From IMG/VR virus record IMGVR_UViG_3300009155_000044, positions 56,074 to 120,073 of that record: a stretch of 64,000 nt of DNA, one strand, 5' to 3'. The notes under the pieces were generated by a model that saw only the letters and a list, made by a program, of their open reading frames with translations, was not told the DNA's origin and made no database searches. The position numbers and the translations under genes are program-made. Shown here piece after piece: positions 4,052 to 50,305 of this stretch (the first letter of the stretch is position 1; every line of letters begins with the position of its first letter). Source of the stretch: a virus.

Positions 4052-4807
4052 ATGGATTTTAAAGAACTATACAATTTTACAGTAGATAAAGAAGTGGAAA
4101 AAGTAATCGAGTCTTCCAAGAAGGACAAGAAAACTGGTGAAGAAACTATCACTAAAAAAACAGTCAAGGAAAAAGTTCCAGTGATTATTAAACTAAAGCG
4201 TCCTTCTCGTAGAGAATTGGAAGAAGCCGAGTTGGAGTTTAGTGTTGAAATGAGTCGATGCGTTAAGAAGGGCATCTTAACAAAAGCTATGTTGGCTAAG
4301 AAGTATAGCGACACTGGCGGTTTGATGAGCGAAGATGACGCTCAATCATTGGTAGACTCTTATAAAAAGATTTTTGATTTGCAAAATGAATACTCTCGCT
4401 TAGAGATTGTTCAAAATAAAACTGACAAACAAAAAGAAAGAGTAGAAGAAATTTCCACTGAGCTTGTGAAAGTTCGCCGTCAAATTGTAGAGTTTGAAAG
4501 CAACTATCAATCTTTGTTTGATCATACAGCAGATGTTAGAGCGCAGAATCGACTCATTCTCTGGTATGTAATCATGTTGACTCACATTCAAGAAGAGACT
4601 GATGAAAATCCTAAACCATTTTTTGGAAAAGGATCATTTGAGGACAAGATGGAAGAGTATTACAAGAGAGAAGAGGGCGAAGATCCTCTATATTTCTTAA
4701 TTACTAAAAAGGCTGCAACAGTTTTAGCTTTCTGGTTCTTCAACCAAACCTCTGATAAAGACTCTTTTGATGGATTGATGAAACGACTCGAAACTAATGA
4801 ACTGTGA
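4052..4807 (+). CDS. Putative tail assembly chaperone
   Basis: 251 aa, charged and helical (KLKRPSRRELEEAE), two genes upstream of the tape measure. Confidence 0.45.
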   Translation: MDFKELYNFTVDKEVEKVIESSKKDKKTGEETITKKTVKEKVPVIIKLKRPSRRELEEAELEFSVEMSRCVKKGILTKAMLAKKYSDTGGLMSEDDAQSLVDSYKKIFDLQNEYSRLEIVQNKTDKQKERVEEISTELVKVRRQIVEFESNYQSLFDHTADVRAQNRLILWYVIMLTHIQEETDENPKPFFGKGSFEDKMEEYYKREEGEDPLYFLITKKAATVLAFWFFNQTSDKDSFDGLMKRLETNEL

Positions 4808-5784
4808 GTGAAGAAGAGTATATCTCTATAGTTGGAGAAATCTTTGATGGTTGTACTGAATTTGAGTACGCTGGGAAACCAGCGTACTTGAAGCATTTCT
4901 CTATTAGAGATCAAAGGTATATTCATCGTTATTATGATAAATACAAATCCATCGCTTTAAAAAAAGGAATTCCCGACGAAAAAACAATTTTAGCTAGACT
5001 AAAAAATGACAACTTATGGTCTGATGATGATGATTTAAAAATTGCTAATTTAGAAGTTGACATTAGCGCTTTAAAAGAGACTCAAAAAAATCTTTATTTG
5101 CAGTCTCAAAAAGATAAAGTTGGCAAAAATATAGCTTCAAAAACTAACGAATTAAATAAATTACAATCTACAAAACGAGAGGTTGCTGGAACTACTGCCG
5201 AATCTTACGCTTCTAATCGCACAAATGAAGAATTTATAAGATACATTTTATTTAAAGATGAGAGTTTAAAAGAGCATTTGTTTTCTCAAGAGGAATTTGA
5301 TGAATTAGAAGACTATAACATCAACTATTTAATCAAAGTATACTCATCTTCAAATCATCGTTTAAACGAAGATAATATTCAACACTGTGTTTTAAGAGAT
5401 TTCTTTAACATGTATCTCTCTCAGACTGAAGATTTGTCAGCATTTTATGGCAAACCAATTATTCAACTATCAATTTTTCAATTAAAACTAGCATTGTATG
5501 CTAGAGTGTTTTTTAACATATTTCAATATAATGAAGACATTCCAGACACTATTAAAAAAGATCCATCTGCAATTTTAAGATTTTCAGAGAGCAAAAAAGG
5601 CGGCAATAAACAGTCAACAAAACGACAAGCTAAAGAATCTGAATCCACAGTAATTTTTGGCGCTACTAAAGAAGATTTAAAACAAATAGATCCTAATGCT
5701 CGCACCATTTCTTTAGAAGACGCAATCAAGAACAATGGAGGAAGTCTTAATATGGAACAAATGATGAAATTGATGGATGGTTAG
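4804..5784 (+). CDS. Putative tail assembly chaperone (pre-tape-measure protein)
   Basis: 326 aa, GTG start overlapping previous TGA, directly upstream of the tape measure. Confidence 0.45.
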   Translation: MSEEEYISIVGEIFDGCTEFEYAGKPAYLKHFSIRDQRYIHRYYDKYKSIALKKGIPDEKTILARLKNDNLWSDDDDLKIANLEVDISALKETQKNLYLQSQKDKVGKNIASKTNELNKLQSTKREVAGTTAESYASNRTNEEFIRYILFKDESLKEHLFSQEEFDELEDYNINYLIKVYSSSNHRLNEDNIQHCVLRDFFNMYLSQTEDLSAFYGKPIIQLSIFQLKLALYARVFFNIFQYNEDIPDTIKKDPSAILRFSESKKGGNKQSTKRQAKESESTVIFGATKEDLKQIDPNARTISLEDAIKNNGGSLNMEQMMKLMDG

Positions 5785-5821: not shown

Positions 5822-8800
5822 ATGGCATTACAACTTCCAGTAGTACAAACAGGTTTAGAAGCGAGCATTCAAGCGGCAATGAGAAATGCTGGCAAAGGCG
5901 CTGTGATTAATTTGGGAACTAGCGGCAAACAAATTGCCTCACTATCTCAACCACTAGGAAGAATCACTGGTCAAGCTGATCAATTCACAAAATCAATGGA
6001 AGCTGCGAATGCTCGCGTTTTCGCATTCGGAGCATCTGTTGGCATTATTAATAATGTTGCTAAAGCATTTAAAGGGATTATTACTAGCACAATAGAAGTT
6101 GAGACTTCTTTAGCAAATATTTATAGCGTTTTAGATAAAGCTGGATTAAGTGCTAAAGAGTTTGAAAGTGGACTATTTGAAGCTGCAAAAAATGCTGGGC
6201 AATCATTCAAAGTTGCTGCCGATGCAGCTTTAGAATTATCTCGTCAAGGTTTAAATTCACAAGATGTTTTAAAAAGATTAAATGATACTTTAATTTTAAC
6301 TCGTTTATCTGGATTAGATTCTGCTGCTGCTGTAGAAGGCTTGAGCGCAGCATACAACTCTTTTGCTGGAACTGGTATTACAACTACAGAAATTCTTAAT
6401 AAATTAGTTGCTGTTTCTCAAAAATATGCAGTTTCTGAAAAAGATCTTATTGAAGGCATTAAAAGAGCAGGATCTACGGCTCAACAAGCTGGAGTTTCTT
6501 TTGATGAACTTGCAGCTTTGATTACTGCTGTACAAGAAAAGACTGCTAGAGGTGGTGCAGTTATTGGTAACTCTTTCAAAACTATTTTTGCTAGACTTCA
6601 AGATAAAACAACTCTTGAGTATTTAAGCGATTTAGGCATTGGAGTTACTGATTTAGAGGGAAAGGTTCTTCCAGCTACTGCAATCATGGAGGGATTAGCT
6701 GCAAAATTTAACGATTTTTCAAAAATTGGACAAGCTGACATTGCTGAAAAGCTGGGTGGTATTTATCAATTGGGAAATTTGCTTGCGGCACTTCAAGATT
6801 TATCTAGTGAACAGTCTAAGTATACAGGAGCTATTAAAGTATCAGCAGAAGCAGCTGATCAAGCTTATCAAAAAAATGCAGCTTTAAATAACACTCTAGA
6901 GAGCATCTTGAATAGAGTTTCAGTGAGTGCTGAACAGTTAGGAGCTACTCTTGGCTCGCTAGGAGTAACTGATAATTTAAAAAATATTTTAAATTTCTTT
7001 ACTTGGCTTTTAGATGGTATTCAAAAAGTTTTACAAGAGGATAGTGGAATTGGTAAATTTTTTAAAGGATTAGTTGCTGGTATTGGTAATTTAATCTCTG
7101 GGCCAGGACTAGCACTATTTGGAGCTATCATTCTTAAACTATCAAGAGATCTTGTTCAGTTTGGATTTTCTAGTTTAAAAAGTTTTTTTGGCATTGGTCA
7201 AGCTGCCAAGCAAATTGCAGATGTTGAAAAATCTGTTGCTCAAGCATTGTCTACAAATGTTTCTTTACAACAACGCTTGTTAGCTGTTGAGGGAGATCGA
7301 GCAGCACAGTTAAGAATTATCAGCGCTGAGATTATTGCTCAAGAAGCGATGCTTAGAAGAATTGCGAGCACATCAGCAGCAATTGCTCCTGGTTTATATG
7401 GAGGTGGCGTAAGATCAACAGGACAAGGCTTGCGCGTTCCAAAAGCTGCTGATGGATACATGCCAGCAGTTGCGGAAGAAGCCTCTAGCGTGAAGCGTGG
7501 AGTTGGTGGGGCTAAGCCTTCAGACAAGCCAGTAGTCATTCCAAACTTCAACTTTGGAGGGGGCAAGCGTGGAACCATGGTTGCAAACTCTGGAGAACAC
7601 ATTGTCCCAAACTTTAATGGAAGCGGCGGGAGCGCTATCTTCAATAGAGACATGGTGAGAAAAATGGGAATGCCTGTTGGAGCGCAAAAAATTAATTCTG
7701 CTGGAGGTTTTGTTCCAAATTTTGCTAACGAAATTATTGAAAGTAAAACATTTGAAGTGCAACAATTACCTAAGTTTAAAAATATGGGTAAAGCAGATTT
7801 AAATGATGATTTTCAAACTTCTATAGAAATTATTAGACAAAAAAAATCCATTGGTCATTATAATGCTGCTGCTCAATCAATGGCTCAATCAATGGCTCAA
7901 TCAATTTTGCCTGTATATGGAAAAAGTACTGGAAAAAAAATAAATCAAGAATATTTTGATAAAGTTATTAAAGGTTTTGAAGATGACGGAGTTGATAAAA
8001 ATGCAATAACAAAATTAAAAACATCAATAATAAATGCTGATCCAAATAAGTCTGATGTAGATAAAAACTCTAACTGGACAAATATTAGAAGTGCCATTCA
8101 AGGAATACTTGGAGAAGTTGATGCGGCAAAATTACTAAATACCACAATTACTCAAGGAAATGCTTTTGTAGATTTAACTTCTGGAGAAGAAGTAAAAACT
8201 AGAGTAATTCAAAGCTCTAAAGACTTGATGAAAAAAGTAGCTAATATTTATTTAGAAACTCATAATACTAAAAATGGCTTAAAAGATGAAATCAGAAAAA
8301 ATAAGTTAGGTGGTAATTTTAAAGTTGTAATGCCATTAGGATCTAAATTACGTGCGGCTAATGGTTTTATTCCAAATTTTGCAATCAGTCAAAGAGAAGC
8401 TGCTTATAATGCTTGGGATAGCCCATTGAAAAATGGTAAACCATATGATTTTGTAAAAAATGCTAGCGGACAAAAGGGAACTAGTCCTAATAAAACAGAA
8501 GCTATTAAAATATCACAAGCGCTTGATCTTTATATAGCAGAAAATTCTGCTCAAAATAGAAACGATTATAAATCTAATAAACAAGAGAGTGTAACTAAAA
8601 GACGCGCAGATACAAGTGGGGCTGTAGCTGAATTTGGAATGATTTATCCATCAAATTCAAAAGGTTCAGTCTCATCATTTTTAGTTGGAAGTCAAAACGA
8701 AGTTGTAAAGGGCATTCCAATTATTGGTAAACCATCAGATGACTTGTATCCTGAAATTGAAAAGGGAATTATTAATGCTGGAATGAATTATGCTAAAAAT

Positions 8801-11800
8801 TTAGGATTTAATCCTGATATCATACAAGAAGAGAGATTTGCAGCAGGAATAAAAAGCCATCTAAATCCTGGAACTATTGAAGCTGCTTTTGGAACAGTTT
8901 TTGAAAGCGTATTTCAGTCGGCTATGCAAGTGCCGCCAAATAATAATCAAACACTTGATTTACCAAATAGATCCAAGTTAAATTCATTTGTTGGATCTAT
9001 GGAAAGGGGTGGAATATTAAAAGCTTCTATCGCTAATAATATAAATCCAGAGATGCTAGCTGCTGATTTTAAAAATGATTTGAGCGATTTAAATTTAAGT
9101 AGCATGGCTGCAAAAATTAAAGCATATCGAGATAAACAAGCTACTAGAGGAAATACTACTAAAACTTCTGCTAGAGGTTTCATTCCAAACTTTGCAAACT
9201 CATCCATGCCTCCTGTATCCATGGTGCCAATGCCAAAAAGTGCAGAGTATCAAAGAAGGCAAAGAGAAAGATCTGCTAAAGCTCAAAAATATAGAAGCGC
9301 CTCTGGACTTATAGGAGATTTGTTTAAAACTCTTCCAGAGAAATTTTTTACAGATTTAGTTTTAGGAGACTCTGACTATGGAGTTGAAACTCCAAGCATT
9401 TTCAAAGCTATTAAAGATAGCGCACTTTATTCAGCAGCTTTTGCTGGTCCAAATGCTTTAAAGTTTGTTCAAGAAGCAGAGGAATATGGTTTAAAAGTTG
9501 CTAAAAGTCTTCAAGATAAATTAGCAAAATTAGTTGTTAAAGCTACAACTAAAAAATCTAGCGCTAATGGATTTTTACCAAACTTTGCAGATCCAGTCCA
9601 AGCTGCTATTGGCAGGGAAATGAGCGCTGGAGTTCCAGCTTCTCAAATTTACATCGACCAGAATTCATCATTAAAGAGCGCTATGAATCCTAATGGACTC
9701 ATGGTGGCTAATCGTATAGATGAACCAATGGGAGGCTCACAGGGCATTGCTAGAGCGCGTAAAGAGGGATCTAATCCAATGACGTATGGAGCAGCTAGAG
9801 GTTTTGTGCCAAACTATGCTAATATTGGATCATTTCAAACTCAAGGAAACTCAATTACTAGTAATCAGGCATCAATAAATCAACCAGCAGTAAATACTGC
9901 TGCTGCTGCTGCTGCTGCATCTAGTGTTGTTATTAGTGCTGCTTCCCAAGCAGCAGCAAAACTTCCCCTACCAAAATCTACTGCAAGATCAATTACACAA
10001 TATCCAAAAGTAAACGTTGATACTTCTAGCAATAAAAATTCTCAAGTGAGTGGTGAAAGAATGCTTGGAACTATTTTTGCAATTCAAGGTGCATTATCAG
10101 TTTTACAAGGAGTTGTTGGTGAAGTTTCTGGAGAAATGGGTGTAGCATTAAGGGTTATAACTAGTGGTTTAAGCTCTTTAACTACGGGGGCATTTGCTCT
10201 TCAAGGATTGCAAGGTATGGGCGGATTAATAGGTGGAGCTACAAAAGCTCTTGGCCCATATGCTTTAGCTTTAGGAGCAGCAACAGCAGCTACTAATGCT
10301 TTTGTAGACTACATGAATGAAACTAGTGGAGCAAATACAGTTGCTGCTAAAAGTTTAGAAAGAGTTGATAGAGCAGCTTCGCAATCTTCTGGAAAATTAG
10401 AAGATTATGCAAAAACAGCGCAAGATGACATAAGAAAAAGAGCTTCAATACAGGTTGAAGCTATGATGGGGGAAAATAAAACAGATGGTGGTTATAAAAT
10501 CTTTGGAGATACTCCACAATTAAAAGCTGTAAAAGAAATATATGCAAAGGGTTTAGGCGCTGGAGCTTTTGGTCCTGATTTGGCTGATATATTAAAAAAG
10601 TCAGCTGAAAATGGTCTTACAGATAGTGAAGTTGATGATTTTTCAATATCGGTAGCAACTTTTATTGAAGCAATAAATAAAGTTCCAGATGAAATATTTA
10701 ATAGTATAGATAAATCTTCTGAAATTTATAAAGCATTATCTGAAAATCCAACCACTATTGAAAATAATTTAAAAAATTCAAATGGGCTTTTATATGAGCC
10801 TTTATATGAATTGAGAAAAAAATTCCAAGACGCTGGAATGCGAAATGACGACGCAATTAATAAAAATATTATGAATTTTGCGTCTAAAGTTAAAACTGAA
10901 ACAAATGCTAAAGATTCAGAAAACCAGATGGCTATTTCTAGAGTTCCAGCTGAAGTATATAAACAAGAATTAAATTCAATTATAAAAATTGCTAAAGCTA
11001 AAGCTGAAGCAAAAAGAGTTGAAGAAGACCTTGATACTCAAGCATTACAAAAGGGTAAGGAGTTAGGTGCATTATCTGAGTCTCAGATTAATATACTACA
11101 GTATAAGATAGCTTTAAAATCTGAAGATTTAAAACTAGAGGATTTACATCGTGATGCTTTAAGTGCTATAGTTGATACCATGGATGCTCAACAGATATCT
11201 GATGAAAAAAGAATTACTTTAAAAACACTAATTAATCAATTAGCAGATAAAGATAGAATAACAGCAGAAGATATTAAAAATATTACTGAAGAATCTTTAA
11301 AAGCTCAAGGAACTATTCCAGAAATTGTGGCTAAAACAGCAGAGGAAAAGAAAAAAGCATTAGAGCTAGACACAAAGGTAAGTAAGATTGCTAAAGCTAT
11401 TCTAGAAGCAGAAAATGGTAGAACTGTTGCAACTTTAAAAACTAAACAAGCGATTAATGAAATTATACAGTCAACAAGTCATTTATTGACAATGAAAAAT
11501 TTTCAGATTGATTTAACAGCAACAATCAAAACTAATGAAATTGAAAAAGAAATAAGAAGACTGGAACTTAATCAGCCGCAAAATACAGTAGCTGCTCGCG
11601 CACAAGCTGCTCAAATTGCACAAAAAAAATATGAATTATTGCAAACTCAATCTCCACTTGAGGCTCAAAAAAAATTCAATAATGCTAAAACTGGATTAAT
11701 AAATCAAGCTAACAGTTTAAGTCTTAACGACACTGATTTTGCAAATTTACAAAAATCAATTGAATCATCAAAAAATATATCTGAACTTCAAAATAAAGCT

Positions 11801-14008
11801 AAGATTCCAACAGGAGTAGTTTTTAATAGAGACAAATATCCTGAATATGCAAGTGCTATAGATACTACAATAGCTGAATTGAAACAATTTGATGCAAATA
11901 CAGCTGGAAGTATTGCTGCCGCCTCAGATGAGCTTGCAAAATCTAAATTACCGCTAGTAGTTAAAAAATTCTCAGACTATGTTATTGATTTAAATGATGG
12001 TTTAGATGCAGCTATAGAACAAGCTAAATTTGAATTTTTATCAACTACTAGTGGCTCTGGATTATTAGATAAAGCATCAAAAGACAAATTTAATGCTGAA
12101 ATGAAATCTGCTGGCACTAGTTCATCTGGAATTTCTCAAGCTTATGCTAATGAAGCAGCGAGATCTGATCAAAGAAGATTAGCATTAGCAGGATCTGCGG
12201 GAGATAAAACATCAATAGAATACGATATTGAAATAAATAAAAAAATTCTTGCTATTAAACAAGAGAGCGTTGATACTCAAACACTATCAGAGGATCAAGA
12301 AGCTAGAATTCTTGAGCTTGAAAAACAACGCTTAGAAGTTAATAAATCTTTGAGTCAAAAACTCAAAGAAGCTTTTGCCACTTCGCCACAAGATCAAATC
12401 AATAAATTAAACAACACTCTTGTTGAGGGCGCTGTCAAATTCAGAGACACAATGATTGATGGCATTGTTCAAGCTATAGAAACTGGCAAAGGACTAAAAG
12501 ATGTTTTAACTTCTGCTGTGTTAGATTTCTCCAGAGAACTCATGAGAACTTCGTTGAGAAATCTTACTGGTTCATTATTTGGCGGAATTGGTGGAATGTT
12601 TGGACAGGGCAATCAAATTTCCACAGGAGCTTCTGGAGGAGCCGTTTCTGGAGGAAGCGGAAGCAAGGATGACGTTCCAGCAATGCTCATGGGCGGAGAG
12701 TACATCATTAATAAAAAATCAGTTAATAAATATGGACCAAAATTCTTAGAAGCTATCAATTCTGGAAATTTAAATGGATATGCTAAAGGCGGAAAAGTAA
12801 AAGACTATTTTACTCCTGGAACTTATGGCGTGAAACAAATGACTACTGATGATGATTTATTAGCTTTTGCAACTCAAGAATCTACTAGCGGAAAAAAAGA
12901 TAAAATTCGTTCTGGAGATGGATTTGCATCAGTTTCTTTAGAACCAGAGAGTGTTCGATTAACTAATTTTGGCAGAAGAAATAGTCCACAAGCTCAAAGA
13001 GCCAAAGATGTTAGAAAACAAATCTTTGGAATCTACATTGATGAAATGAAAAAAGCTGCTGAATTAAAAAGACAAGAAGAAGAAGAGAAAAAAGCTAGAA
13101 AAAAAGCTATTAAAAATGCTTTGATTATGGCAGGAATTTCTATAGCTGGATCAGCATTAATAGGAGCAGCAACTAGTGGGTTTAGCAATGCTTACTCAAC
13201 ATCTAAACTTGCTGGAGGCACTTTTGGAAAAAATGTAGGATCTGGAGTGGGAGGAATGTTTACAGGAGGAGGAGTTTCTGGTTTGCAAGGAAATAACTAT
13301 GGAGGACTATTTAACATGTTCTCTAAATCTGGATATGTTACTAAAGCTAGCCAAATGGCTGGAAGTATCACTAGCAAAGGTTTTATAGGGCCAGTTCAAA
13401 ATTCTAGCAATGTTAATATTGGTAATAATATAGCCCAACCGAGCTTTCCTTTAGGAGGCTCATCTGAAACTTATGCAGGAGGGTTATTTCCGATGGGATT
13501 GACTCCTGAACTTGGAGCATCTGGACCTGGAATGAGTTATGGTACAGCAATAGATTTAACTAATCCTAATAGTGAAGATCCATATAATCCATTTCGTATA
13601 ACAACAAGAGCAGTTGGGGGATCCATTTCTGAAACAGCAGGAATAGATACAATTCCAACAATGCTTTCTGGTGGAGAATTCGTTATGAATCGTGCTGCTG
13701 CTCAAAATATTGGACCTGGAAACTTGCAAGCTATGAATGCTGGAGCTTCTAAACCAATGAGCGAAGAAGCTTCAAAAGATTTAAATAACAAATTAATTTC
13801 TAAATTTGATGAACTCATTGGAACGACTGAAAAATCCACAGGTTCAATCACTATTAATGTGGATGGATCCTCTGGAAAAAGTTCAGAAAACTCCTCTGGT
13901 CAAACTCAAGGAGCAAATCAACAACTTTCGCGCCAAATCAGAGATGCTGTTTTAAAAGTTATTCAAGAGGAAAAACGTCTTGGCGGTCAATTAAGAAGAG
14001 GAATGTAA
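5822..14008 (+). CDS. Tail tape measure protein (TP901-like N-terminal domain) with internal repeat-delimited domains
   Basis: 2728 aa, Ala/Gly-rich; TMP motifs (ELSRQG, LVAVSQKYAVSEKDL, RGGAVIGNSFKTIFARL), hydrophobic segments, two C-terminal MLxGGE(Y/F)(I/V) motifs. Confidence 0.9.
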   Translation: MALQLPVVQTGLEASIQAAMRNAGKGAVINLGTSGKQIASLSQPLGRITGQADQFTKSMEAANARVFAFGASVGIINNVAKAFKGIITSTIEVETSLANIYSVLDKAGLSAKEFESGLFEAAKNAGQSFKVAADAALELSRQGLNSQDVLKRLNDTLILTRLSGLDSAAAVEGLSAAYNSFAGTGITTTEILNKLVAVSQKYAVSEKDLIEGIKRAGSTAQQAGVSFDELAALITAVQEKTARGGAVIGNSFKTIFARLQDKTTLEYLSDLGIGVTDLEGKVLPATAIMEGLAAKFNDFSKIGQADIAEKLGGIYQLGNLLAALQDLSSEQSKYTGAIKVSAEAADQAYQKNAALNNTLESILNRVSVSAEQLGATLGSLGVTDNLKNILNFFTWLLDGIQKVLQEDSGIGKFFKGLVAGIGNLISGPGLALFGAIILKLSRDLVQFGFSSLKSFFGIGQAAKQIADVEKSVAQALSTNVSLQQRLLAVEGDRAAQLRIISAEIIAQEAMLRRIASTSAAIAPGLYGGGVRSTGQGLRVPKAADGYMPAVAEEASSVKRGVGGAKPSDKPVVIPNFNFGGGKRGTMVANSGEHIVPNFNGSGGSAIFNRDMVRKMGMPVGAQKINSAGGFVPNFANEIIESKTFEVQQLPKFKNMGKADLNDDFQTSIEIIRQKKSIGHYNAAAQSMAQSMAQSILPVYGKSTGKKINQEYFDKVIKGFEDDGVDKNAITKLKTSIINADPNKSDVDKNSNWTNIRSAIQGILGEVDAAKLLNTTITQGNAFVDLTSGEEVKTRVIQSSKDLMKKVANIYLETHNTKNGLKDEIRKNKLGGNFKVVMPLGSKLRAANGFIPNFAISQREAAYNAWDSPLKNGKPYDFVKNASGQKGTSPNKTEAIKISQALDLYIAENSAQNRNDYKSNKQESVTKRRADTSGAVAEFGMIYPSNSKGSVSSFLVGSQNEVVKGIPIIGKPSDDLYPEIEKGIINAGMNYAKNLGFNPDIIQEERFAAGIKSHLNPGTIEAAFGTVFESVFQSAMQVPPNNNQTLDLPNRSKLNSFVGSMERGGILKASIANNINPEMLAADFKNDLSDLNLSSMAAKIKAYRDKQATRGNTTKTSARGFIPNFANSSMPPVSMVPMPKSAEYQRRQRERSAKAQKYRSASGLIGDLFKTLPEKFFTDLVLGDSDYGVETPSIFKAIKDSALYSAAFAGPNALKFVQEAEEYGLKVAKSLQDKLAKLVVKATTKKSSANGFLPNFADPVQAAIGREMSAGVPASQIYIDQNSSLKSAMNPNGLMVANRIDEPMGGSQGIARARKEGSNPMTYGAARGFVPNYANIGSFQTQGNSITSNQASINQPAVNTAAAAAAASSVVISAASQAAAKLPLPKSTARSITQYPKVNVDTSSNKNSQVSGERMLGTIFAIQGALSVLQGVVGEVSGEMGVALRVITSGLSSLTTGAFALQGLQGMGGLIGGATKALGPYALALGAATAATNAFVDYMNETSGANTVAAKSLERVDRAASQSSGKLEDYAKTAQDDIRKRASIQVEAMMGENKTDGGYKIFGDTPQLKAVKEIYAKGLGAGAFGPDLADILKKSAENGLTDSEVDDFSISVATFIEAINKVPDEIFNSIDKSSEIYKALSENPTTIENNLKNSNGLLYEPLYELRKKFQDAGMRNDDAINKNIMNFASKVKTETNAKDSENQMAISRVPAEVYKQELNSIIKIAKAKAEAKRVEEDLDTQALQKGKELGALSESQINILQYKIALKSEDLKLEDLHRDALSAIVDTMDAQQISDEKRITLKTLINQLADKDRITAEDIKNITEESLKAQGTIPEIVAKTAEEKKKALELDTKVSKIAKAILEAENGRTVATLKTKQAINEIIQSTSHLLTMKNFQIDLTATIKTNEIEKEIRRLELNQPQNTVAARAQAAQIAQKKYELLQTQSPLEAQKKFNNAKTGLINQANSLSLNDTDFANLQKSIESSKNISELQNKAKIPTGVVFNRDKYPEYASAIDTTIAELKQFDANTAGSIAAASDELAKSKLPLVVKKFSDYVIDLNDGLDAAIEQAKFEFLSTTSGSGLLDKASKDKFNAEMKSAGTSSSGISQAYANEAARSDQRRLALAGSAGDKTSIEYDIEINKKILAIKQESVDTQTLSEDQEARILELEKQRLEVNKSLSQKLKEAFATSPQDQINKLNNTLVEGAVKFRDTMIDGIVQAIETGKGLKDVLTSAVLDFSRELMRTSLRNLTGSLFGGIGGMFGQGNQISTGASGGAVSGGSGSKDDVPAMLMGGEYIINKKSVNKYGPKFLEAINSGNLNGYAKGGKVKDYFTPGTYGVKQMTTDDDLLAFATQESTSGKKDKIRSGDGFASVSLEPESVRLTNFGRRNSPQAQRAKDVRKQIFGIYIDEMKKAAELKRQEEEEKKARKKAIKNALIMAGISIAGSALIGAATSGFSNAYSTSKLAGGTFGKNVGSGVGGMFTGGGVSGLQGNNYGGLFNMFSKSGYVTKASQMAGSITSKGFIGPVQNSSNVNIGNNIAQPSFPLGGSSETYAGGLFPMGLTPELGASGPGMSYGTAIDLTNPNSEDPYNPFRITTRAVGGSISETAGIDTIPTMLSGGEFVMNRAAAQNIGPGNLQAMNAGASKPMSEEASKDLNNKLISKFDELIGTTEKSTGSITINVDGSSGKSSENSSGQTQGANQQLSRQIRDAVLKVIQEEKRLGGQLRRGM
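7697..9820 (+). repeat. Dispersed 10-aa motif (S/A)AxGF(V/I/L)PN(F/Y)A x5 in the tape measure, plus a degenerate copy at 7445
   Basis: Copies start in frame at 7697, 8354, 9167, 9560 and 9791. Confidence 0.9.
7871..7906 (+). repeat. 12-bp tandem repeat x3 (AQSM)
   Basis: gctcaatcaatg gctcaatcaatg gctcaatcaatt. Confidence 0.9.
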
Positions 14009-14009
14009 C

Positions 14010-14804
14010 ATGTTTAATTCTACTAGCAACTACGAAAATAGATTTTCTATTAATGATCGAGAAATTTTGGGCATTGATAGTCTTGATTTGTCGTATAGTA
14101 ATCCATCTAATAATTCTAAAATTCTTGGAAGAGAATCTTCATTCACCACAATTAATGGCCCAACATCTGCTCAATTATCAATTAGTAGAAGTTTAATTTA
14201 TATTGATCCAATTTTACAGTATACGGGATCTCCAGCAATTAATGGAAAAATTCATTTTACTAATAATAATCAAGCTTATGGTTTTTCTTCAGGATATTTA
14301 ACAGAGTACATGGTTAATTGCGCGGTTGGATCTATACCAAAAGTATCTAGTAATTTTATTATTTTTGATGAACTCACAAGTCAAGCAGTGCCATCATATA
14401 CTTTTGAACCTCCTGCAATTTCTATTCCAAATCAAGGAAGCATATCTTTATCTTGCGACAATTCAACAACTAATAGAGTAGTTGGTTTTGATTACTCTAT
14501 AAAAATAACTAGAAAGCCAATTTATACTATAGGAAGTAAATATCCATTTGAAGTAGTTACTTTTAAAAATATTGAATACTCAGCATCTGTGCAAATTGAT
14601 GTTGACGATGCTTTTTTGCAAAATTCTTTTAATTTTTTATCTGCTCGCGAAAATAAAACAGTTTCTTTCTCTATTAAAGATAAAACATTAACTAATACTA
14701 TTCAAACATTAACTATACCAAAAGCATCATTAGTTGGCGAAAGTTTGTCTAGCAGTGCTGATGGTGGTGTAAAATTAACATTAAACTATATTGGTCATTC
14801 ATGA
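14010..14804 (+). CDS. Tail protein, tube-like paralog (hub/initiator candidate)
   Basis: Shares motifs with the tube genes (VNCAVGSIPKVSSNF vs LDAAVGNLPTVSVSF; ITRKPIYTIGSKYP vs LARTPIQRIGSRF); directly after the TMP. Confidence 0.5.
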   Translation: MFNSTSNYENRFSINDREILGIDSLDLSYSNPSNNSKILGRESSFTTINGPTSAQLSISRSLIYIDPILQYTGSPAINGKIHFTNNNQAYGFSSGYLTEYMVNCAVGSIPKVSSNFIIFDELTSQAVPSYTFEPPAISIPNQGSISLSCDNSTTNRVVGFDYSIKITRKPIYTIGSKYPFEVVTFKNIEYSASVQIDVDDAFLQNSFNFLSARENKTVSFSIKDKTLTNTIQTLTIPKASLVGESLSSSADGGVKLTLNYIGHS

Positions 14805-15742
14805 GTGCTTTTTATAATAGAGATTCTAATATTAGTGGAGTCACTGCAATTACTAGTTTAGTTTTTAATCCAAGCTACGGATCTAGAATTAATTTTAAAA
14901 GCACATACTATTCATATGAAACTCACAATGGATATTATAATTTAATTCCTTTGTCTATTAATAGTTTAAATGCTGAATATCAATTAAAATATCAATTGAA
15001 TGAAACTAATTCCAAACAACTAATCAACTATGTTGAAAGCAAAAATGGCACAGATTTGCTTCCATTTTCAGATCCATCTAGTTTTTATAAAACAATTTCT
15101 GGAGTAATTGATAACTATTCTATAAATCATATAAATAAAAATCATTATGAGGTTAATTTAGCTTTTCAAGTTAATGAAGCTCCAAATTTACTGAACTGGT
15201 CTGGAATGACATTTGTAAACTCTCCTCTAACAACTTGGCAGTCGGGGAAATATTATGAAAAATATGATATAGTTTATTCTGGCGTCTCTTCAAATAAATT
15301 AGATAATTATTACTATTGTTCTGGAAATCATACAGGAACAAACCGTAGTCTTGATGGACCAACTGGAAGCGCAACAAAATGGACAAAATATTTCTTTTTT
15401 GAACCAGATGTTGGACTTCAAAATGAAGTAGCATTAAAGGTAGATAAAATTGAATTTAAAAATTCATTTGTTCAGCGAATGAAAACTAGAACAAACATAG
15501 CAACAACAGATTTTTCTTATAAGTTTGAGAAAGCTTCTACTAAAAAAGCTAAAGCTATTCTTCATTTTTTAGAAAATAAAGGCGGATATCGCAGATTCTA
15601 CAGTGATCCTCCATCAGTGTATAATAAATTGAAAGTATTCTATTCGCCGTCTTGGAGTCACACTTGGAATTATGCTGATTCTCACGATTTAGAAGTTTCA
15701 TTAATTGAAGATCCATTAGGAATAGTACCAACAGGCTCATGA
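14801..15742 (+). CDS. Minor tail protein (distal-tail-like, internally duplicated halves)
   Basis: Two similar halves (LINYVESKNG / ILHFLENKGG); position after TMP. Confidence 0.5.
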   Translation: MSAFYNRDSNISGVTAITSLVFNPSYGSRINFKSTYYSYETHNGYYNLIPLSINSLNAEYQLKYQLNETNSKQLINYVESKNGTDLLPFSDPSSFYKTISGVIDNYSINHINKNHYEVNLAFQVNEAPNLLNWSGMTFVNSPLTTWQSGKYYEKYDIVYSGVSSNKLDNYYYCSGNHTGTNRSLDGPTGSATKWTKYFFFEPDVGLQNEVALKVDKIEFKNSFVQRMKTRTNIATTDFSYKFEKASTKKAKAILHFLENKGGYRRFYSDPPSVYNKLKVFYSPSWSHTWNYADSHDLEVSLIEDPLGIVPTGS

Positions 15743-16935
15743 ATAAAACAATTTTAAAAAGCAATTCAGCATTTGTAGCTATTGGTCAGTCTCCAGCGTG
15801 GAAGACTGGTAATGATTCTGGACGATTATTTTCATTGGTTCAGAATTGCAATTTTTCAGTTAGCAATGAGAGGCAAAAATTAAAACAGATTGGAAGACAA
15901 AACTACTCTGTCAATGATCTAGTAAGAGCGCCAAATATAGAACTATCTTTTGATTATTATTTATCGCCCTATATTAGCAATGAGCTAGCAATGAATTTTC
16001 AGACAAAAACTGCTTCTAATTTAGGAGCATTTACTAATATAAAAAATACTAATAATAATTTTTATATTGTTGTTGATCCAGAAGATCTTAGAGATGCATT
16101 TGAAAAGCCTAAAAATCCAATCATCACAAACACTAGTTATAGTGGATTTAATGTTTTATCTTTTGGAAATTGTTATTTAAATAAATATAGCGTATCTTTT
16201 AATTTGAATGAAATACCAAAAGTTTCAGTTGGATTTGAAGCTTCTAATATGAAATTTGATGTTTTAACTGGAAACTCAATCACTATTCCAGCTATTAATA
16301 GCATTAGTGGAAATTCAATTAATGCTGGTTCATTGAATTTATCTGGATTTTATTCTTCTCTAACTGGAAGTTATATTACTGGACAGGATAATGGTAAAAC
16401 AGAATATGATCCTCCAGTTACAATTCCATCTTATTGCACATTCTCTCTGCAAAATTTACAAGTTGGAGGAGTCGCTTTATCGGCTGCATCAAAACCTATA
16501 TTACAAAATTTATCTTTAAATTTTGATCTTCCAAGAACTCCACTTTATGGACTAGGAAGCAATTACGTTTATAATAGAAAACTAGAGTATCCAATTAATG
16601 GATCAGTAAATTTATCCGCACAAGTTTCTGGATTCTCTAGCGGATTTTTAAGTGGAATGCTATACAATGAAAGTGGTTATAATTTTGATATATCATTTTC
16701 AGACTCATCAAAATTAGCTACTGGATTTTATAGCATAACAAATGCTAAACTTGATAATTTTAATTATTCAATGACTGTGAATGATGTTTTAAATTTTACA
16801 GCATCATTTTCAGTAGAAACAAATGATTCAGCTGGATTTTACATTGATAGAAAAACCACAAAGTTTCCATCTATTTGGAGTGCTATATCTAATATATGGT
16901 CAAGTATAAATATTAATTGGCAATCTTTAGAATAA
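15739..16935 (+). CDS. Tail tube-like paralog
   Basis: VQNCNFS, APNIELSFDYYL, FGNCYLNKYSVSFNLNEIPKVSVGFEASNM and LPRTPLYGLGS align by eye with 615..1763. Confidence 0.6.
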   Translation: MNKTILKSNSAFVAIGQSPAWKTGNDSGRLFSLVQNCNFSVSNERQKLKQIGRQNYSVNDLVRAPNIELSFDYYLSPYISNELAMNFQTKTASNLGAFTNIKNTNNNFYIVVDPEDLRDAFEKPKNPIITNTSYSGFNVLSFGNCYLNKYSVSFNLNEIPKVSVGFEASNMKFDVLTGNSITIPAINSISGNSINAGSLNLSGFYSSLTGSYITGQDNGKTEYDPPVTIPSYCTFSLQNLQVGGVALSAASKPILQNLSLNFDLPRTPLYGLGSNYVYNRKLEYPINGSVNLSAQVSGFSSGFLSGMLYNESGYNFDISFSDSSKLATGFYSITNAKLDNFNYSMTVNDVLNFTASFSVETNDSAGFYIDRKTTKFPSIWSAISNIWSSININWQSLE

Positions 16936-25344: not shown

Positions 25345-26286
25345 ATGTTCATGGACAGTAAAAGTAAAATCCTGATTGCGGGAGCTAAGGGAATGGTTGG
25401 ATCTGCAATCATAAGAAAATTAAAAGAAAAAGGATATAATAATATCGTTGCTGGAACTCGCGATTTGGTTGATTTCACAAATTCCAAAGAAACTAAATAT
25501 TTCTTTAGTAGAGTAAAACCTGATTACGTGTTTGTTGCCGCTGCCAAGGTTGGTGGTATTATTGCAAACAATAATTACAAAGCAGATTTTCTTTATGAAA
25601 ATTTGATGATTCAGAATAATATTATTCATAATGCCTATAATTTTGGAGTTAAAAAACTTCTGTTTCTTGGTTCTTCCTGCATCTATCCAAGACTTGCCAC
25701 TCAACCAATCACAGAAGATCAGTTGATGACTGGCGCTCTGGAGCCTACGAATGATGCCTATGCAATTGCAAAGATTGCTGGAATTAAACTATGTGAAGCA
25801 TATCGTCAGCAGTATGGATTTAATGCTATTTCTTTGATGCCAACAAATCTTTACGGTCCTAATGATAATTTTGATTTAGAAACATCACATGTTCTTCCTG
25901 CAATGATTTCAAAGTTTCACAATGCCCTTAACTATAGCAAACACTGTGAAGTGAAGCTTTGGGGAGATGGTTCTACAATGCGTGAGTTTTTACACGTTGA
26001 TGATTTGGCAGATGCATGTTATATTTGTATGCAGAACTACGATGAAATGGGACATATTAATATTGGAACTGGTGAGGACATAATGATTAAACAACTGGCA
26101 GGGATAATTGCCAATATCGTTGGTTATGATCGTGATATTAACTGGGATACAACAAAACCAAATGGAACTCCAAGAAAAGTTTTAAATATAGATAAAATTA
26201 AATCCTTTGGTTGGCAGCCTAAAATTAATCTCTGTGAAGGTATTGAAAAAACTTATGAATGGTATAAGAAAAATATTATCGTTTAA
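25345..26286 (+). CDS. fcl: GDP-L-fucose synthase
   Basis: GAKGMVGSAI, AAAKVGGI, LGSSCIYP, YAIAK, PTNLYGPNDNF, REFLHVDDLA. Confidence 0.95.
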   Translation: MFMDSKSKILIAGAKGMVGSAIIRKLKEKGYNNIVAGTRDLVDFTNSKETKYFFSRVKPDYVFVAAAKVGGIIANNNYKADFLYENLMIQNNIIHNAYNFGVKKLLFLGSSCIYPRLATQPITEDQLMTGALEPTNDAYAIAKIAGIKLCEAYRQQYGFNAISLMPTNLYGPNDNFDLETSHVLPAMISKFHNALNYSKHCEVKLWGDGSTMREFLHVDDLADACYICMQNYDEMGHINIGTGEDIMIKQLAGIIANIVGYDRDINWDTTKPNGTPRKVLNIDKIKSFGWQPKINLCEGIEKTYEWYKKNIIV

Positions 26287-26351: not shown

Positions 26352-29129
26352 ATGGAAAAAAATATTTACTGGCTCAATGCAGATTCTCGCAAATTTTTAA
26401 GCAGCGGTTATTTGATGGACGGCGAAACTGCTGAGCAGAGAATATCTGATGTTGCACAAACAGCAGAAAGTCTTTTATCTGTAAGCGAGGATTGTATTAC
26501 TAAAGTTAATGATTACCTCAAATGCAAAAGTTTTGCTGAGAAGTTCGCAGACTATCTTGAGCGTGGATTTTATTCATTATCATCTCCTAATTGGTCAAAC
26601 TTTGGCAGAAAAAGAGGTCTTCCAATTTCTTGTTTTGGAACTTATCTAGAAGATTCTATCGAGTCTATTACTGGTCATAAACTTGCTGAAATCAGCATGA
26701 TGACAAAATCTGGGGGAGGCACTAGCGCATTTTTTGGCAATGTTCGTCCTAGAGGATCTAAAATTTCATCTGGTGGAGAATCAACAGGTTCAGTTCATTT
26801 TATGGAACTCTACGATAAGATGATGACTGTTGTCTCTCAGGGAAATACGAGAAGAGGAGCTTGTGCAATATATCTTCCAATTGATCATGGTGATATCGAA
26901 GAATTTTTAAAAATTAAATCAGAAGGAAATGATATTCAAGAACTCTCAATTGGAGTCTGCGTCACTAATAAGTGGATGCAGGACATGATTGATGGCAATA
27001 AAGAAAATAGAAGAATCTGGGGTCTTGTGATTCAAAAGAGATTTGAAAGCGGATATCCATACATCTTTTTCTCTGATAACGCTAATGATCAAGCCCCTCA
27101 AGTTTATAAAGATAAAAATTTAAAAATCAGTCATTCAAATCTTTGCGTCACTGGAGATCAAAGGGTTATTTCTAATTTTGGAATTTTAACGGCAAAAGAA
27201 CTCTATGAAAATGGAGATGAGTTAATTCTTTTTGATAATGAAAAAGAAGTAAAAGCATCAAAAATGAAATTAGTTGAGAAAGATGCTGATGTTTTTGAAA
27301 TTAAACTTGAGAATGGAATGTCGCATAAAATTACATCCTATCATAAAGTTTCTACAAAAGATGGGGATATAGCATGTCACGATTTAAAAATTGGAGATTC
27401 TGTTGCGGTTCAAACAAATAAGGGAATTTTTGGAAATAATGATATGACCAAAGAAGCATTTCTTCTTGGTTTATATCAAGCTGATGGAACTCAACATAAA
27501 GATTATATTATGATTGATATTTGGAGAAATGATTTTGATTTAATTGAAGAAGTTCAAAATGCTCATGATTTCGTATCTGATAAATATAAAACTCAAATTT
27601 CTCTCTATAATAATAGAGTTTATCAAAACGCTAGTTTTTGCAACTGTGTTGTTGCTGAAGGGTCTCATGAGAAAAAAAGACTATCTAGTAAAGCACTTAA
27701 AAAAGCATTGAATTTTGAAAAAGGATACGTTCCAGAATGGATCTGGTCGTCCAATGAAGAAACGCTATGGCAATACATTAGAGGTCTTTACTATGCAGAC
27801 GGAACTGTGTTTAAATCTAAATCATCTGGAGAACCACTTCAAATTTCACTAGCTTCAATTAACAAAGAATTTCTAGAAGAAGTGCAAATTATTTTAGCAA
27901 ATCTTGGAATGCAATCATCAATTCGCCTTTTAAGAGAAAGTTGTGAGTCGTTACTTCCTGATGGACATGGAGGAAACAAAATGTATAAAACTAAAACTGC
28001 TTGGAGATTAATTATTGGAAATAAAAATGATGCATTAGTTTTTAATAAAAATACTAAATTTCTTGATAGAAAAAATATTATTCTAGAGGATCGTGAATAT
28101 AGAGATAATACTAAAAAATTCTATAAAGTTTCATCTATTTCTAATATTGGGCAAGAGGATGTCTATTGTTGCACAGTAGAATCAAAATCTCATCACTGGA
28201 TCTGCAATGGAGTTGTTACTCACAACTGTAATGAAATAATGCTTGCTGATTCTCCAACAGAATCTTTTGTTTGTAATTTGTCATCTCTGAATCTGGATAA
28301 GTGGGAAGAGTGGAAAGATACTGATGCTGTTGAAACAATGGTATTTTTCTTGGATGCTGTCATGACAGAGTTTATTAATAAAACTGAAAACATGGCATTC
28401 ATGAGTCATGCTCGCAACTTTGCAATCAATCAGAGAGCGCTTGGTATTGGAGTTCTTGGTTGGCATTCACTACTTCAGTCTAAAATGATTCCTTTTGAAT
28501 CAATGGATGCTAAAATTTTAAATAACCAAATTTGGAAAACAATCAGAAATCGCGCCGATGTGGCTACTGAGAAATTAGCTGAAATCTATGGAGAACCAGC
28601 ATTACTTGAAGGATATGGTCGTCGTAATGTGACTACAATAGCTGTAGCTCCAACAGTAAGCTCAAGCTTTATTCTTGGTCAAGTCTCTCAGGGCATTGAA
28701 CCTTTAAATGGCAATTACTTTGTTAAAGGATTAGCTAAGGGCGATTTCTCTTATCAAAATCCCTATTTAGAAAAATTGCTAATTGAAAAAAATCAAAACT
28801 CCGCAGAAGTTTGGAAATCTATTTTAATTCGAGGAGGATCTGTTGCTCATTTAGATTTCTTGTCTGAAAATGAAAAAGCTACTTTTAAAACTTTTGGAGA
28901 AATCTCTCAGAAAGAAATTATCATTCAAGCCTCTCAACGTCAAAAATACATTGACCAAGGTCAAAGCTTAAACATCATGATTCCTCCTTCAGCATCTGCC
29001 AAAGAAGTTAATCAACTTATGATTTTTGCATGGGAACAAGGAATCAAAGGCTTGTATTATCAAAAGAGCGCTAATCCAGCGCAAGAACTAGCTCGCTCTA
29101 TTCTCAATTGCGAATCATGCCAAGCATAA
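26352..29129 (+). CDS. nrdA: Ribonucleotide reductase alpha subunit (no ATP cone) with intein
   Basis: PISCF, GGGTS, RRGA, SNL|CNEI finger loop split by intein, AVAPTVSSS, DQGQSLN, KGLYY, C-terminal CESC. Confidence 0.95.
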   Translation: MEKNIYWLNADSRKFLSSGYLMDGETAEQRISDVAQTAESLLSVSEDCITKVNDYLKCKSFAEKFADYLERGFYSLSSPNWSNFGRKRGLPISCFGTYLEDSIESITGHKLAEISMMTKSGGGTSAFFGNVRPRGSKISSGGESTGSVHFMELYDKMMTVVSQGNTRRGACAIYLPIDHGDIEEFLKIKSEGNDIQELSIGVCVTNKWMQDMIDGNKENRRIWGLVIQKRFESGYPYIFFSDNANDQAPQVYKDKNLKISHSNLCVTGDQRVISNFGILTAKELYENGDELILFDNEKEVKASKMKLVEKDADVFEIKLENGMSHKITSYHKVSTKDGDIACHDLKIGDSVAVQTNKGIFGNNDMTKEAFLLGLYQADGTQHKDYIMIDIWRNDFDLIEEVQNAHDFVSDKYKTQISLYNNRVYQNASFCNCVVAEGSHEKKRLSSKALKKALNFEKGYVPEWIWSSNEETLWQYIRGLYYADGTVFKSKSSGEPLQISLASINKEFLEEVQIILANLGMQSSIRLLRESCESLLPDGHGGNKMYKTKTAWRLIIGNKNDALVFNKNTKFLDRKNIILEDREYRDNTKKFYKVSSISNIGQEDVYCCTVESKSHHWICNGVVTHNCNEIMLADSPTESFVCNLSSLNLDKWEEWKDTDAVETMVFFLDAVMTEFINKTENMAFMSHARNFAINQRALGIGVLGWHSLLQSKMIPFESMDAKILNNQIWKTIRNRADVATEKLAEIYGEPALLEGYGRRNVTTIAVAPTVSSSFILGQVSQGIEPLNGNYFVKGLAKGDFSYQNPYLEKLLIEKNQNSAEVWKSILIRGGSVAHLDFLSENEKATFKTFGEISQKEIIIQASQRQKYIDQGQSLNIMIPPSASAKEVNQLMIFAWEQGIKGLYYQKSANPAQELARSILNCESCQA
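27144..28226 (+). mobile_element. Intein with LAGLIDADG endonuclease in NrdA (361 aa)
   Basis: Starts CVTGDQRV, ends VTHN before catalytic Cys(+1); motifs FLLGLYQADG and YIRGLYYADG. Confidence 0.93.
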
Positions 29130-32467: not shown

Positions 32468-33715
32468 ATGAAAAAAACAAACTGTAGAATATCAAATGAC
32501 GAACTAGTTGAGCTTTTTACATTAGGAAATTTATGCGTTTCCGATTTTCTTGATAACAATAATCAAGAAGCGGAAAAATTTGAACTAAAACTCATGATGT
32601 CAAAAAAATCTGGACTAGTACAACTTGAATCTGGAGTTGATCCAGATAAGATGTACGGTAGATACTGGTATAGATCTGGAACAAACGATACAATGAGAAA
32701 GCAACTTAAAAATATAGTTGACTCTTGCATCTATATAAAGAAAAATTATGAAAATAGTTTATGGCTAGATATTGCTTGTAATGATGGCACATTATTAAGT
32801 TTTATTCCAGATAACTTTAGCAAATTAGGGATTGATCCAGTTGAAGATTCATATGTTAAAGAAAGCTCTAAATTTGCAAATCAAATTATTCAAGATTATT
32901 TTTCTTTAGAAGCTTATAATAAAAGTATTTTTAAAAATAGAAAATGTGATATAATTACTTGTATTGCAATGTTTTATGATTTAGAAGATCCAATTTCATT
33001 CTTAAATGATATTAATAGCGTTTTAGCAGATGATGGATTATTTGTAGTGCAAATGAGTTATACGCCATTAATGGTCGAGCAATTAGCTTTTGATAATATT
33101 TGTCATGAACATCTAATGTATTATAATCTACACTCTATCAAATATTTACTTGAGAATAATGGATTTAAAATAGTTGACTGTGAACTAAATGATGTTAATG
33201 GTGGATCTTTCCGAGTTTATATACAAAAATCAAATGCGGACACAAGCTCATTTGCAACTGCTCCATATAGAGATGTAGCAAAATTTAGAGTTGAATCGCT
33301 ACTAAAATATGAACAAGATTTAGGTGTAATGTCAATTGATTACTATAAAAAGTTTTTTATTAAAATTGAAGATCTAAAAGAAAAAACCGTAAACTTTATT
33401 AAAGAGGAAAAAGCAAAAGGTAAATCTATTTGGATATATGGAGCATCAACAAAAGGAAATACTCTTTTACAATATTTTGGGCTTGATAATTCATTAATAG
33501 ATGGAGCGGCAGAAAGAAGTCTTTATAAATTTGGACTTAGAACTATTGCTACAGATATTCCAATTTATTCAGAACAAGAGATGAGAGATAAAAAGCCAGA
33601 TTATTTATTAGTATTACCATGGCATTTTATAGATGAATTTAAAGCAAGAGAAAGTGAATTTCTAAAAAATGGTGGTAAATTTATAGTTCCTTGTCCAAAA
33701 TTTGAAATAATTTAA
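32468..33715 (+). CDS. NDP-sugar C-methyltransferase (Methyltransf_13/14 architecture)
   Basis: LDIACNDGTLL, DNICHEHLMYY, VNGGSFR, YGASTKGNTLLQY, YLLVLPWHF. Confidence 0.88.
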   Translation: MKKTNCRISNDELVELFTLGNLCVSDFLDNNNQEAEKFELKLMMSKKSGLVQLESGVDPDKMYGRYWYRSGTNDTMRKQLKNIVDSCIYIKKNYENSLWLDIACNDGTLLSFIPDNFSKLGIDPVEDSYVKESSKFANQIIQDYFSLEAYNKSIFKNRKCDIITCIAMFYDLEDPISFLNDINSVLADDGLFVVQMSYTPLMVEQLAFDNICHEHLMYYNLHSIKYLLENNGFKIVDCELNDVNGGSFRVYIQKSNADTSSFATAPYRDVAKFRVESLLKYEQDLGVMSIDYYKKFFIKIEDLKEKTVNFIKEEKAKGKSIWIYGASTKGNTLLQYFGLDNSLIDGAAERSLYKFGLRTIATDIPIYSEQEMRDKKPDYLLVLPWHFIDEFKARESEFLKNGGKFIVPCPKFEII

Positions 33716-49683: not shown

Positions 49684-50305
49684 TCTACTTCGCTTTAATA
49701 ATTCTCAAAAATATATAGCACTCGACACTGAGACAGAAGGACTAAATCTAGTAAAGTCTAGACCATGGCAAGTTGCGTGGATTATTGCAGAAGGCAAACA
49801 AATCAAATCCAAGCACAGTCACTTTATCAAGTGGCCGAATCTAACAGTATCTGAAGGTGCTGCTAAAGTTACTGGATTCTCCATGGAGAAATATGAAAGA
49901 CTCGCAGAAGATCCAATGGAAGTTTTTAATAAGCTAAAGCCTTATCTTTACAATCCAGAGTATAAAATAATTGGGCAGAATCTTCTGGGGTTTGATGTTT
50001 ATATGATTAATATCTGGAGAAAAGAAATGGGATTAAAATCAGACTACTCTTTCATTGATCGAATCATTGATACTAAATCAATTGCTGCTGCAATCTTTAA
50101 AAATATTTGGCCCGATAAGAGCAACTTTACTAGCTGGCAATATAAACTTCTTCATGTTAAAGAGAAGGGTCTTAAAACATCTCAATTGACCTTGCTCAAG
50201 CATTATGGCATCTCATTTGATCAGAGCAAGTTGCACGATGCCCTTTACGATATTGAAATGAACTTCGATATTTTCCTCAAACAAATTTACGACATTGAAA
50301 TATGA
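49673..50305 (+). CDS. DEDDh 3'-5' exonuclease (Pol III epsilon-like)
   Basis: ALDTETEG, GQNLLGFD, IDT, LHDALYD. Confidence 0.88.
   Translation: MNDNLLRFNNSQKYIALDTETEGLNLVKSRPWQVAWIIAEGKQIKSKHSHFIKWPNLTVSEGAAKVTGFSMEKYERLAEDPMEVFNKLKPYLYNPEYKIIGQNLLGFDVYMINIWRKEMGLKSDYSFIDRIIDTKSIAAAIFKNIWPDKSNFTSWQYKLLHVKEKGLKTSQLTLLKHYGISFDQSKLHDALYDIEMNFDIFLKQIYDIEI

Follow-up and report, generated by a model that had tools for sequence, protein, structure and literature searches.

In this study we characterize the middle part of a tape measure protein (TMP) that is encoded by a large, uncultured siphovirus-type phage, within a 64,000-nucleotide stretch of IMG/VR record IMGVR_UViG_3300009155_000044 (positions 56,074 to 120,073). 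This stretch, here called the window, is the right half of a record of 120,073 bp with an estimated completeness of 93%; nucleotide positions refer to the window and residue numbers to the 2728-residue TMP (P0001). We consider it probable that the region is an array of modules within the TMP, each fenced off from the next by a ten-residue junction peptide. Its most likely reading is a modular cargo array that is carried by the TMP and has junction peptides acting at the protein level. TMPs belong to the phage proteins that enter the cell earliest, and they are usually viewed as rulers, sometimes with a cell-wall hydrolase.

The assignment of the gene as a TMP held up well. A PF10145 (PhageMin_Tail) domain lies at residues 120–313 (E 4e-28; 99.1 bits versus a gathering cut-off of 33.2 in Pfam), TMP PHROGs match residues 30–480 (best E 2e-48), and minor tail protein genes follow downstream at 14010–16935, together with a receptor-binding-type protein. 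Matches of the downstream open reading frames (ORFs) to phrog_290, phrog_14, PF05939 and BppL_N place the TMP gene in the tail module. PF10145 was the sole domain found in P0001 by a Pfam scan at E values up to 1. TMPs of the TP901 family or with PF10145 share with this protein the N-terminal domain, the site upstream of minor tail genes, the long helical C-terminal half and a Gly/Ala-rich hydrophobic stretch. However, the present TMP differs from them in its length and in its middle of 700 residues, where a repeated peptide separates globular modules.

The original prediction placed five copies of the motif (S/A)AxGFxPN(F/Y)A in this middle part, and all five are where it put them, in frame within a single ORF (Table 1). 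From the composition of the protein 3.6e-5 copies of G[FY][IVL]PN[FY]A are expected versus the 5 seen, and none appeared in 20,000 shuffles. A looser pattern, searched in all six reading frames along the entire 120,073-bp genome, found no place beyond the five. Two degenerate copies, VVIPNFNF and HIVPNFNG, are located just upstream of the array (residues 571–603). The consensus of 532 motif copies reads A-A-G-G-(F/Y)-(I/V)-P-N-(F/Y)-A. Taking 138 motif copies of 58 TMP genes together, each invariant G, P, N or A residue draws on several synonymous codons in proportions close to the gene background; the G0 position, for example, uses GGA (0.41), GGT (0.36), GGC (0.13) and GGG (0.10). Since synonymous codons vary freely at the motif, selection therefore acts on the peptide and not on a DNA site, and the junction peptide is evidently maintained at the protein level.

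A search with residues 540–1420 returned at least 871 proteins, nearly all of 2000–4400 residues and labelled as TMPs; module counts given here refer to the 120 listed proteins out of these homologues. Every listed protein was cut at its motifs, and the resulting 454 segments were clustered. The motif is present in all 120 TMPs with 2–11 copies each, and the segments fall into about 48 families that are arranged in 74 distinct orders, the order in this phage being 7, 5, 8, 1. Families 2, 3 and 5 were joined into one superfamily (hhalign 95–98%), which forms a core present in 113 of the 120 TMPs, always as first or second module. The family 1 terminal unit occurs in 112, normally in last position and sometimes as an internal duplicate too; the last two motif copies of the relatives are almost always 77 residues apart, the same distance at which J5 follows the preceding junction. 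Family 7, to which module 1 belongs, is found in about 15% of relatives and always ahead of the core, in a slot where other TMPs carry family 13, 16, 20 or 21. In a large subgroup of marine viral contigs (L007–L050) the first module is ‘cassette 14’, an 80-residue duplicate of the pre-array block, and many members of this subgroup are without the 67-residue terminal unit or have a short form of 51–54 residues.

Alignments between relatives tend to break at the peptide. Using 46,291 local-alignment ends from an all-against-all BLASTP comparison, 43% of the ends inside arrays were found at most 5 residues from a motif centre versus 5.6% of random positions (median distance 7 versus 53); part of this enrichment is expected, as an alignment tends to end once it reaches the conserved motif, and such ends are what defines a module boundary. 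One relative, P0004, is 91% identical to this TMP over residues 1–637 and 47% identical thereafter, and it is without module 1. Judging from the alignment, this step is a recombination joint at J1. Across the relatives modules are evidently added, dropped, duplicated and replaced, with the joints falling at the peptide; the core and the terminal unit are the universal parts, and the remaining modules are optional. The segments had been proposed to be swappable cassettes and the repeat a recombination boundary. The number and identity of the segments do vary, but segment 2 turned out to be the core that nearly all relatives keep. Likewise, the exchange joints do lie at the motif on the protein level, but the codons of the motif are not conserved.

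That the motif divides the TMP middle into independently folding segments is supported by confident AlphaFold2 models, with a pLDDT (predicted local distance difference test) of 88 and a pTM (predicted template modelling score) of 0.81 for the alpha/beta module 1, and values of 78 and 0.67 for the globular alpha/beta module 2. In these models both modules fold as globular alpha/beta structures and not as plain helices or coiled coils, unlike the helical remainder of the protein, and the module content varies among relatives. Module 4, with a mean column identity of 75% in 14 sequences, is the best conserved part of the TMP and resembles the pre-array block (G-x-M-V-A-N ... VPNF). Module 3 had no match in Pfam or PHROG searches. 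For module 1, an exhaustive profile search of 1.84 billion representatives gave 31 matches, all of them giant TMPs or their fragments. Free-standing homologues were sought for module 1 (114–366 residues) and for the core family (114–545 residues) and none were found, and no locus was confirmed when metagenome contigs were scanned with an alignment of two module 1 sequences. Residues 667–721 of module 1 (window 7727–8000) have the order strand-helix-loop-helix and weakly match the helix-loop-helix of the Arc repressor (8 bits per copy); this part might be a ribbon-helix-helix-like element preceding the nuclease-like half of the module.

Some modules of the relatives carry motifs of other kinds. 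Families 6 (∼150 residues) and 18 (∼480–510 residues) have the Walker A loop GPxGxGKST and weak AAA_17 and P-loop matches, and they are likely, by these motifs, to be small P-loop kinases or NTPases; loci of such modules are L058:3781-4293, L065:3751-4203 and L061:3175-4707. Family 4 shows a protein-kinase-like set (GxGxxGxF, VGVKKF, DLHGxN and IIDxG) with one weak kinase match (E 1). It is encoded at L059:3694-4266, L058:5698-6945 and L065:4234-4803, and P0006 has two tandem copies.

Table 1. Features of the TMP gene and its module array (positions in the window; residues of P0001)
Feature	Position	Strand	Residues	Remarks
TMP gene (P0001)	5822..14008	+		2728 residues; single ORF; PF10145; TMP PHROGs
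Pre-array block	7445..7696	+		two degenerate (V/I)PNFN copies (residues 571-581, 593-603) and G-T-M-V-A-N element; nearly invariant in alignments
Junction J1, SAGGFVPNFA	7697..7726	+	626-635	in-frame motif
Module 1, family 7	7727..8353	+	636-844	optional leader; invariant G761, G764, E765, D784, K805; E790 (D in few)
Junction J2, AANGFIPNFA	8354..8383	+	845-854	in-frame motif
Module 2, family 5 (superfamily 2/3/5)	8384..9166	+	855-1115	core; conserved G1024, E1028, D1046, (D/E)1082-x-K1084
Junction J3, SARGFIPNFA	9167..9196	+	1116-1125	in-frame motif
Module 3, family 8	9197..9559	+	1126-1246	121 residues; 17-18-member family, mostly penultimate
Junction J4, SANGFLPNFA	9560..9589	+	1247-1256	in-frame motif
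Module 4, family 1	9590..9790	+	1257-1323	67 residues; universal terminal unit; NPxGLMVANxxDEP core
Junction J5, AARGFVPNYA	9791..9820	+	1324-1333	in-frame motif
Gly/Ala-rich hydrophobic stretch	10052..10312	+	1411-1497	membrane-segment-like, from translation; putative function
C-terminal motif DDVPAMLMGGEYIIN...	12668..12766	+	2283-2315	nearly invariant in aligned relatives
C-terminal motif, second copy, IDTIPTMLSGGEFVMN...	13643..13744	+	2608-2641	nearly invariant in aligned relatives

The ten-residue peptide fences independently folding domains (a leader, a core, a 121-residue module and a 67-residue terminal unit). A probable mechanism would be that, at infection, these accompany the TMP as polyvalent cargo on its way into the envelope or the cell of the host. 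Host entry might occur in the manner of polyvalent proteins (PMC5512222) or of TMP-derived effectors of contractile injection systems (PMC13277306). The junction peptide would be the joint between modules, either as a processing site or as a structural hinge or docking strand. The conserved acidic residues and the lysine of modules 1 and 2 would form putative enzyme-type sites, in the simplest case the centre of a metal-dependent phosphoesterase or of a nuclease-like enzyme. Several points weigh against such a cargo array. Neither sequence nor fold links modules 1 and 2 to a known family, and modules 2 and 4 are nearly universal, so a role in structure or assembly fits as well as cargo does. 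In addition, three copies of folded domains of 200–260 residues would not fit the lumen of the tail tube. Release of modules from the virion, their cleavage and their activity are proposals, and the enzyme identities suggested for modules of the relatives are read from motifs only.

TMPs with embedded peptidoglycan-hydrolase motifs are known from mycobacteriophage TM4 and its relatives and from T5 (pb2). What these share with the TMPs studied here is a catalytic domain inside the ruler that presumably acts at entry, as relatives of our TMP carry SLT, lysozyme or VanY domains. However, these hydrolase domains are not part of the motif-fenced array and occur further on, in the C-terminal half (lysozyme or VanY domains in P0018, residues 2448–2572, and P0100, residues 1680–1757), and no lysozyme, SLT, peptidase or VanY domain was found by Pfam in the present TMP, while the array modules are shuffled and of unknown families. 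A second variable site lies at 10444–12442 (residues 1542–2206), where the closest relative, P0003, is unalignable and has its SLT transglycosylase domain (its residues 2082–2170); in the relatives it is this site that holds the SLT, lysozyme or VanY domains.

Polyvalent proteins of phages and conjugative elements combine many unrelated domains in one polypeptide, and host entry together with the DNA has been proposed for them (Iyer et al. 2017, PMC5512222). The likeness lies in a multi-module polypeptide that is encoded among virion genes, the enzymatic nature of our modules being putative. In contrast, TMPs are not mentioned in that work and no common junction peptide is described there. Neither a zincin-like peptidase nor any other catalogued polyvalent-protein domain was found in P0001 (Pfam, E up to 1) or in 20 module representatives. 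A report on Sle1-type effectors of actinobacterial contractile injection systems describes an exchangeable functional domain on a TMP-derived carrier that is packaged in a tail-like particle (PMC13277306), which resembles the arrangement proposed here. These effectors belong to another lineage and differ in having a single C-terminal functional domain instead of an internal array, and the abstract of that report mentions no repeated junction motif. Our literature search found no paper with the junction motif or with a motif-fenced TMP architecture. The array extends two known kinds of protein, the TMP that carries a functional domain and the polyvalent virion protein.

Among the other explanations, the junction peptide could be a proteolytic processing site and the TMP middle a polyprotein that is cut during maturation or after ejection. 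We regard this as possible, if somewhat short of probable. In lambda and T5 the TMP is known to be processed, and here about ten residues are strictly conserved as peptide while synonymous codons are free, the peptide is always positioned exactly between folding units, and within the genome it is confined to the TMP. For polyvalent proteins, processing by built-in peptidases has been proposed (PMC5512222). However, Pfam finds no peptidase domain in the TMP or its neighbours. Furthermore, cuts at J1–J5 would separate the first third of the ruler, on its N-terminal side, from the rest, which is difficult to reconcile with length measurement unless cleavage happens after assembly.

The original prediction further proposed that modules 1 and 2 resemble PD-(D/E)XK restriction-like nucleases, which the virion could deliver for the degradation of host DNA or against defence. 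The acidic residues and lysines it quoted are present and are the most conserved columns of the two modules (E765, D784, E790 and K805; E1028, D1046 and K1084); such charged residues are invariant within module families of 14–40% identity. In module 1, G761, G764, E765, D784 and K805 are invariant and position 790 is E or D in 32–35 relatives (down to E 1e-6). The lysine of the ‘EVK’ element, K792, is replaced by Arg in about a third of the relatives, and it is K805 on the next helix that is invariant instead. The predicted order is a helix (E765), three short strands (D784, E790), a helix (K805) and a strand. By its model, this order fits the alpha-beta-beta-beta-alpha-beta core, with the lysine shifted to the helix as in the cap-snatching PD-(D/E)XK endonucleases of arenaviruses and influenza virus. 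These share with module 1 a helical bundle with a small sheet and the succession of an acidic residue in a helix, D and E in two consecutive strands and K in the helix after them; the structural alignments are weak (111–115 residues, noise-level scores). If the alignment is roughly collinear, D784, E790 and K805 presumably lie near D89, E102 and K115 of lymphocytic choriomeningitis virus, the alignment itself giving ranges only. In module 2, G1024, D1046 and K1084 are invariant, E1028 is conserved in at least 90% and (D/E)1082 is conserved as well (24 sequences of 14–34% identity), which in the superfamily as a whole gives the pattern G-x3-E, hD, (D/E)xK. Core family 2 shows FE, PFDF and GEAK, and FE, hD and E(V/A)K recur in the pre-core families 13, 16, 20 and 21. 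However, the topology predicted for module 2 is non-canonical, with three strands before the E-helix and a helix between D and DxK.

Comparisons with known proteins did not support a nuclease identity at a significant level. Foldseek gave best E values of 0.45 (module 1) and 0.31 (module 2) against the PDB and of 0.09 against BFVD (module 1), none of them significant, with HinP1I and a phage ‘restriction endonuclease’ among the non-significant matches. Top matches in the VIA structure search were helical bundles, with nucleases at noise level, and the ESM Atlas had no usable match for either module. Pfam searches of 20 module representatives (E up to 5) returned noise and a weak AAA_17 match for the P-loop module, PHROG searches of 10 representatives (E up to 1) returned noise only, and profile searches of PDB sequences gave the 8-bit Arc-repressor-like match for module 1 and noise for module 2. 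A search of the phage genome with PF06250 found no match. With hhalign, the module families reached at most 3.4% against YraN and YhcG_C (alignments from Bacteroidota genomes). This last test was powerless, because the control, the true PD-(D/E)XK pair YraN and YhcG_C, itself reached only 9%. The E..D..(D/E)xK order claimed for the two segments is conserved, but it comes with no significant nuclease match, and the xK lysine of segment 1 is often Arg. The conserved site of modules 1 and 2 looks enzymatic from its residues, the nuclease fold being a candidate one, and we consider virion-delivered restriction-like nucleases a doubtful though legitimate candidate.

The modules might also serve tail structure or assembly and be no effectors at all, for example as sites that bind a chaperone or initiate the tube, as length spacers or as a plug close to the neck. 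The conserved charged residues would then form contacts between subunits or with metal. The core and the terminal unit, which hold fixed positions in nearly all TMPs, speak for such a role, and the missing free-standing relatives of module 1 and the core family are expected if these function only inside a TMP. Moreover, no other stretch of the protein is as well conserved as the terminal unit, whose likeness to the pre-array block suggests a repeated structural element. On the other hand, this explanation does not account for 74 architectures in 120 proteins, for the range of 2–11 modules or for the Walker A and kinase-like modules of relatives, and invariant E/D/K sets in domains of 15–30% identity are more typical of active sites. 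On balance we regard a purely structural role of the universal modules as less likely than not, though as a serious rival. Finally, exchange joints between relatives coincide with the motif, as a DNA-level recombination signal would predict, but the synonymous codon use at its invariant residues rules this out in all but the slightest degree.

Returning to the modular cargo array, a bolder and quite tentative extension would be that giant TMPs are plug-in delivery racks, with the peptide as release or joint signal and the modules as enzymes that are injected before the DNA. Such a rack would hold two divergent metal-dependent nuclease-like domains in this phage, and kinase-like and P-loop modules too in its relatives. 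The injected enzymes might disarm or reprogramme the host, and as a counter-defence system the array would be virion-borne and would evolve combinatorially.

Regarding the remainder of the TMP and genome, both copies of the C-terminal motif follow D-x-(V/I)-P-x-M-L-x-G-G-E-(Y/F)-(I/V)-x-N, with (Y)AxGG close by. An ORF of 326 residues without a family match (4804–5784) adjoins the TMP gene upstream. A counterpart of 322–329 residues precedes the TMP in every relative looked up, and the ORF might encode a chaperone for tail assembly or some other partner of the TMP. The genome encodes a terminase with inteins, ribonucleotide reductase, DnaB, the alpha subunit of DNA polymerase III (Pol III) and sugar-nucleotide enzymes; the phage is a large virulent siphovirus-type phage and no prophage. 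Intein or LAGLIDADG insertions occur in four essential genes (26352–29129, 44232–46826 and 50302–52086 in the window, and L068:7895-12334), namely those of the ribonucleotide reductase large subunit, a DnaB-like helicase, Pol III alpha and the large terminase. The Pol III alpha ORF stops within a Hint/intein domain, and the large terminase has 1479 residues and two apparent inteins. Between 30000 and 42000 the GC content is very low (20–27% versus ∼33%) and sugar-nucleotide-type enzymes are encoded. Sampling with Pfam in or beside this block found an NAD epimerase (25345–26286), a C-methyltransferase (32468–33715) and a nucleotidyl transferase (36674–38545), and the block may be a phage-borne glycan or DNA-modification pathway. 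The phage also encodes a ClpB/Hsp104-like double AAA+ protein of 767 residues (53520–55823). In a GenBank-derived phage collection no record matches any part of the TMP other than residues 29–466 (the N-terminal 16%) or the conserved terminal unit. A search for the host with the terminal unit in ∼185,000 species genomes gave two matches, both on contigs of metagenome-assembled genomes (Saccharibacteria and Flavobacterium bins). No host is assigned, because both matches are probably mis-binned phage.

In conclusion, we describe an abundant and wholly uncultured phage lineage, which counts hundreds of members in metagenomes of freshwater and marine origin and is absent from sequenced isolates. 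This lineage uses its ruler protein as a carrier for shuffled orphan domains, with one conserved peptide between them. If the modules are indeed delivered enzymes, they would represent a large untapped pool of early-acting phage effectors, whose boundaries a ready rule would locate. Should the peptide serve as a signal for cleavage or docking, it would represent a new maturation element and a possible tool to load cargo into phage tails. Even a conservative reading yields the domain boundaries of about 48 new protein families.

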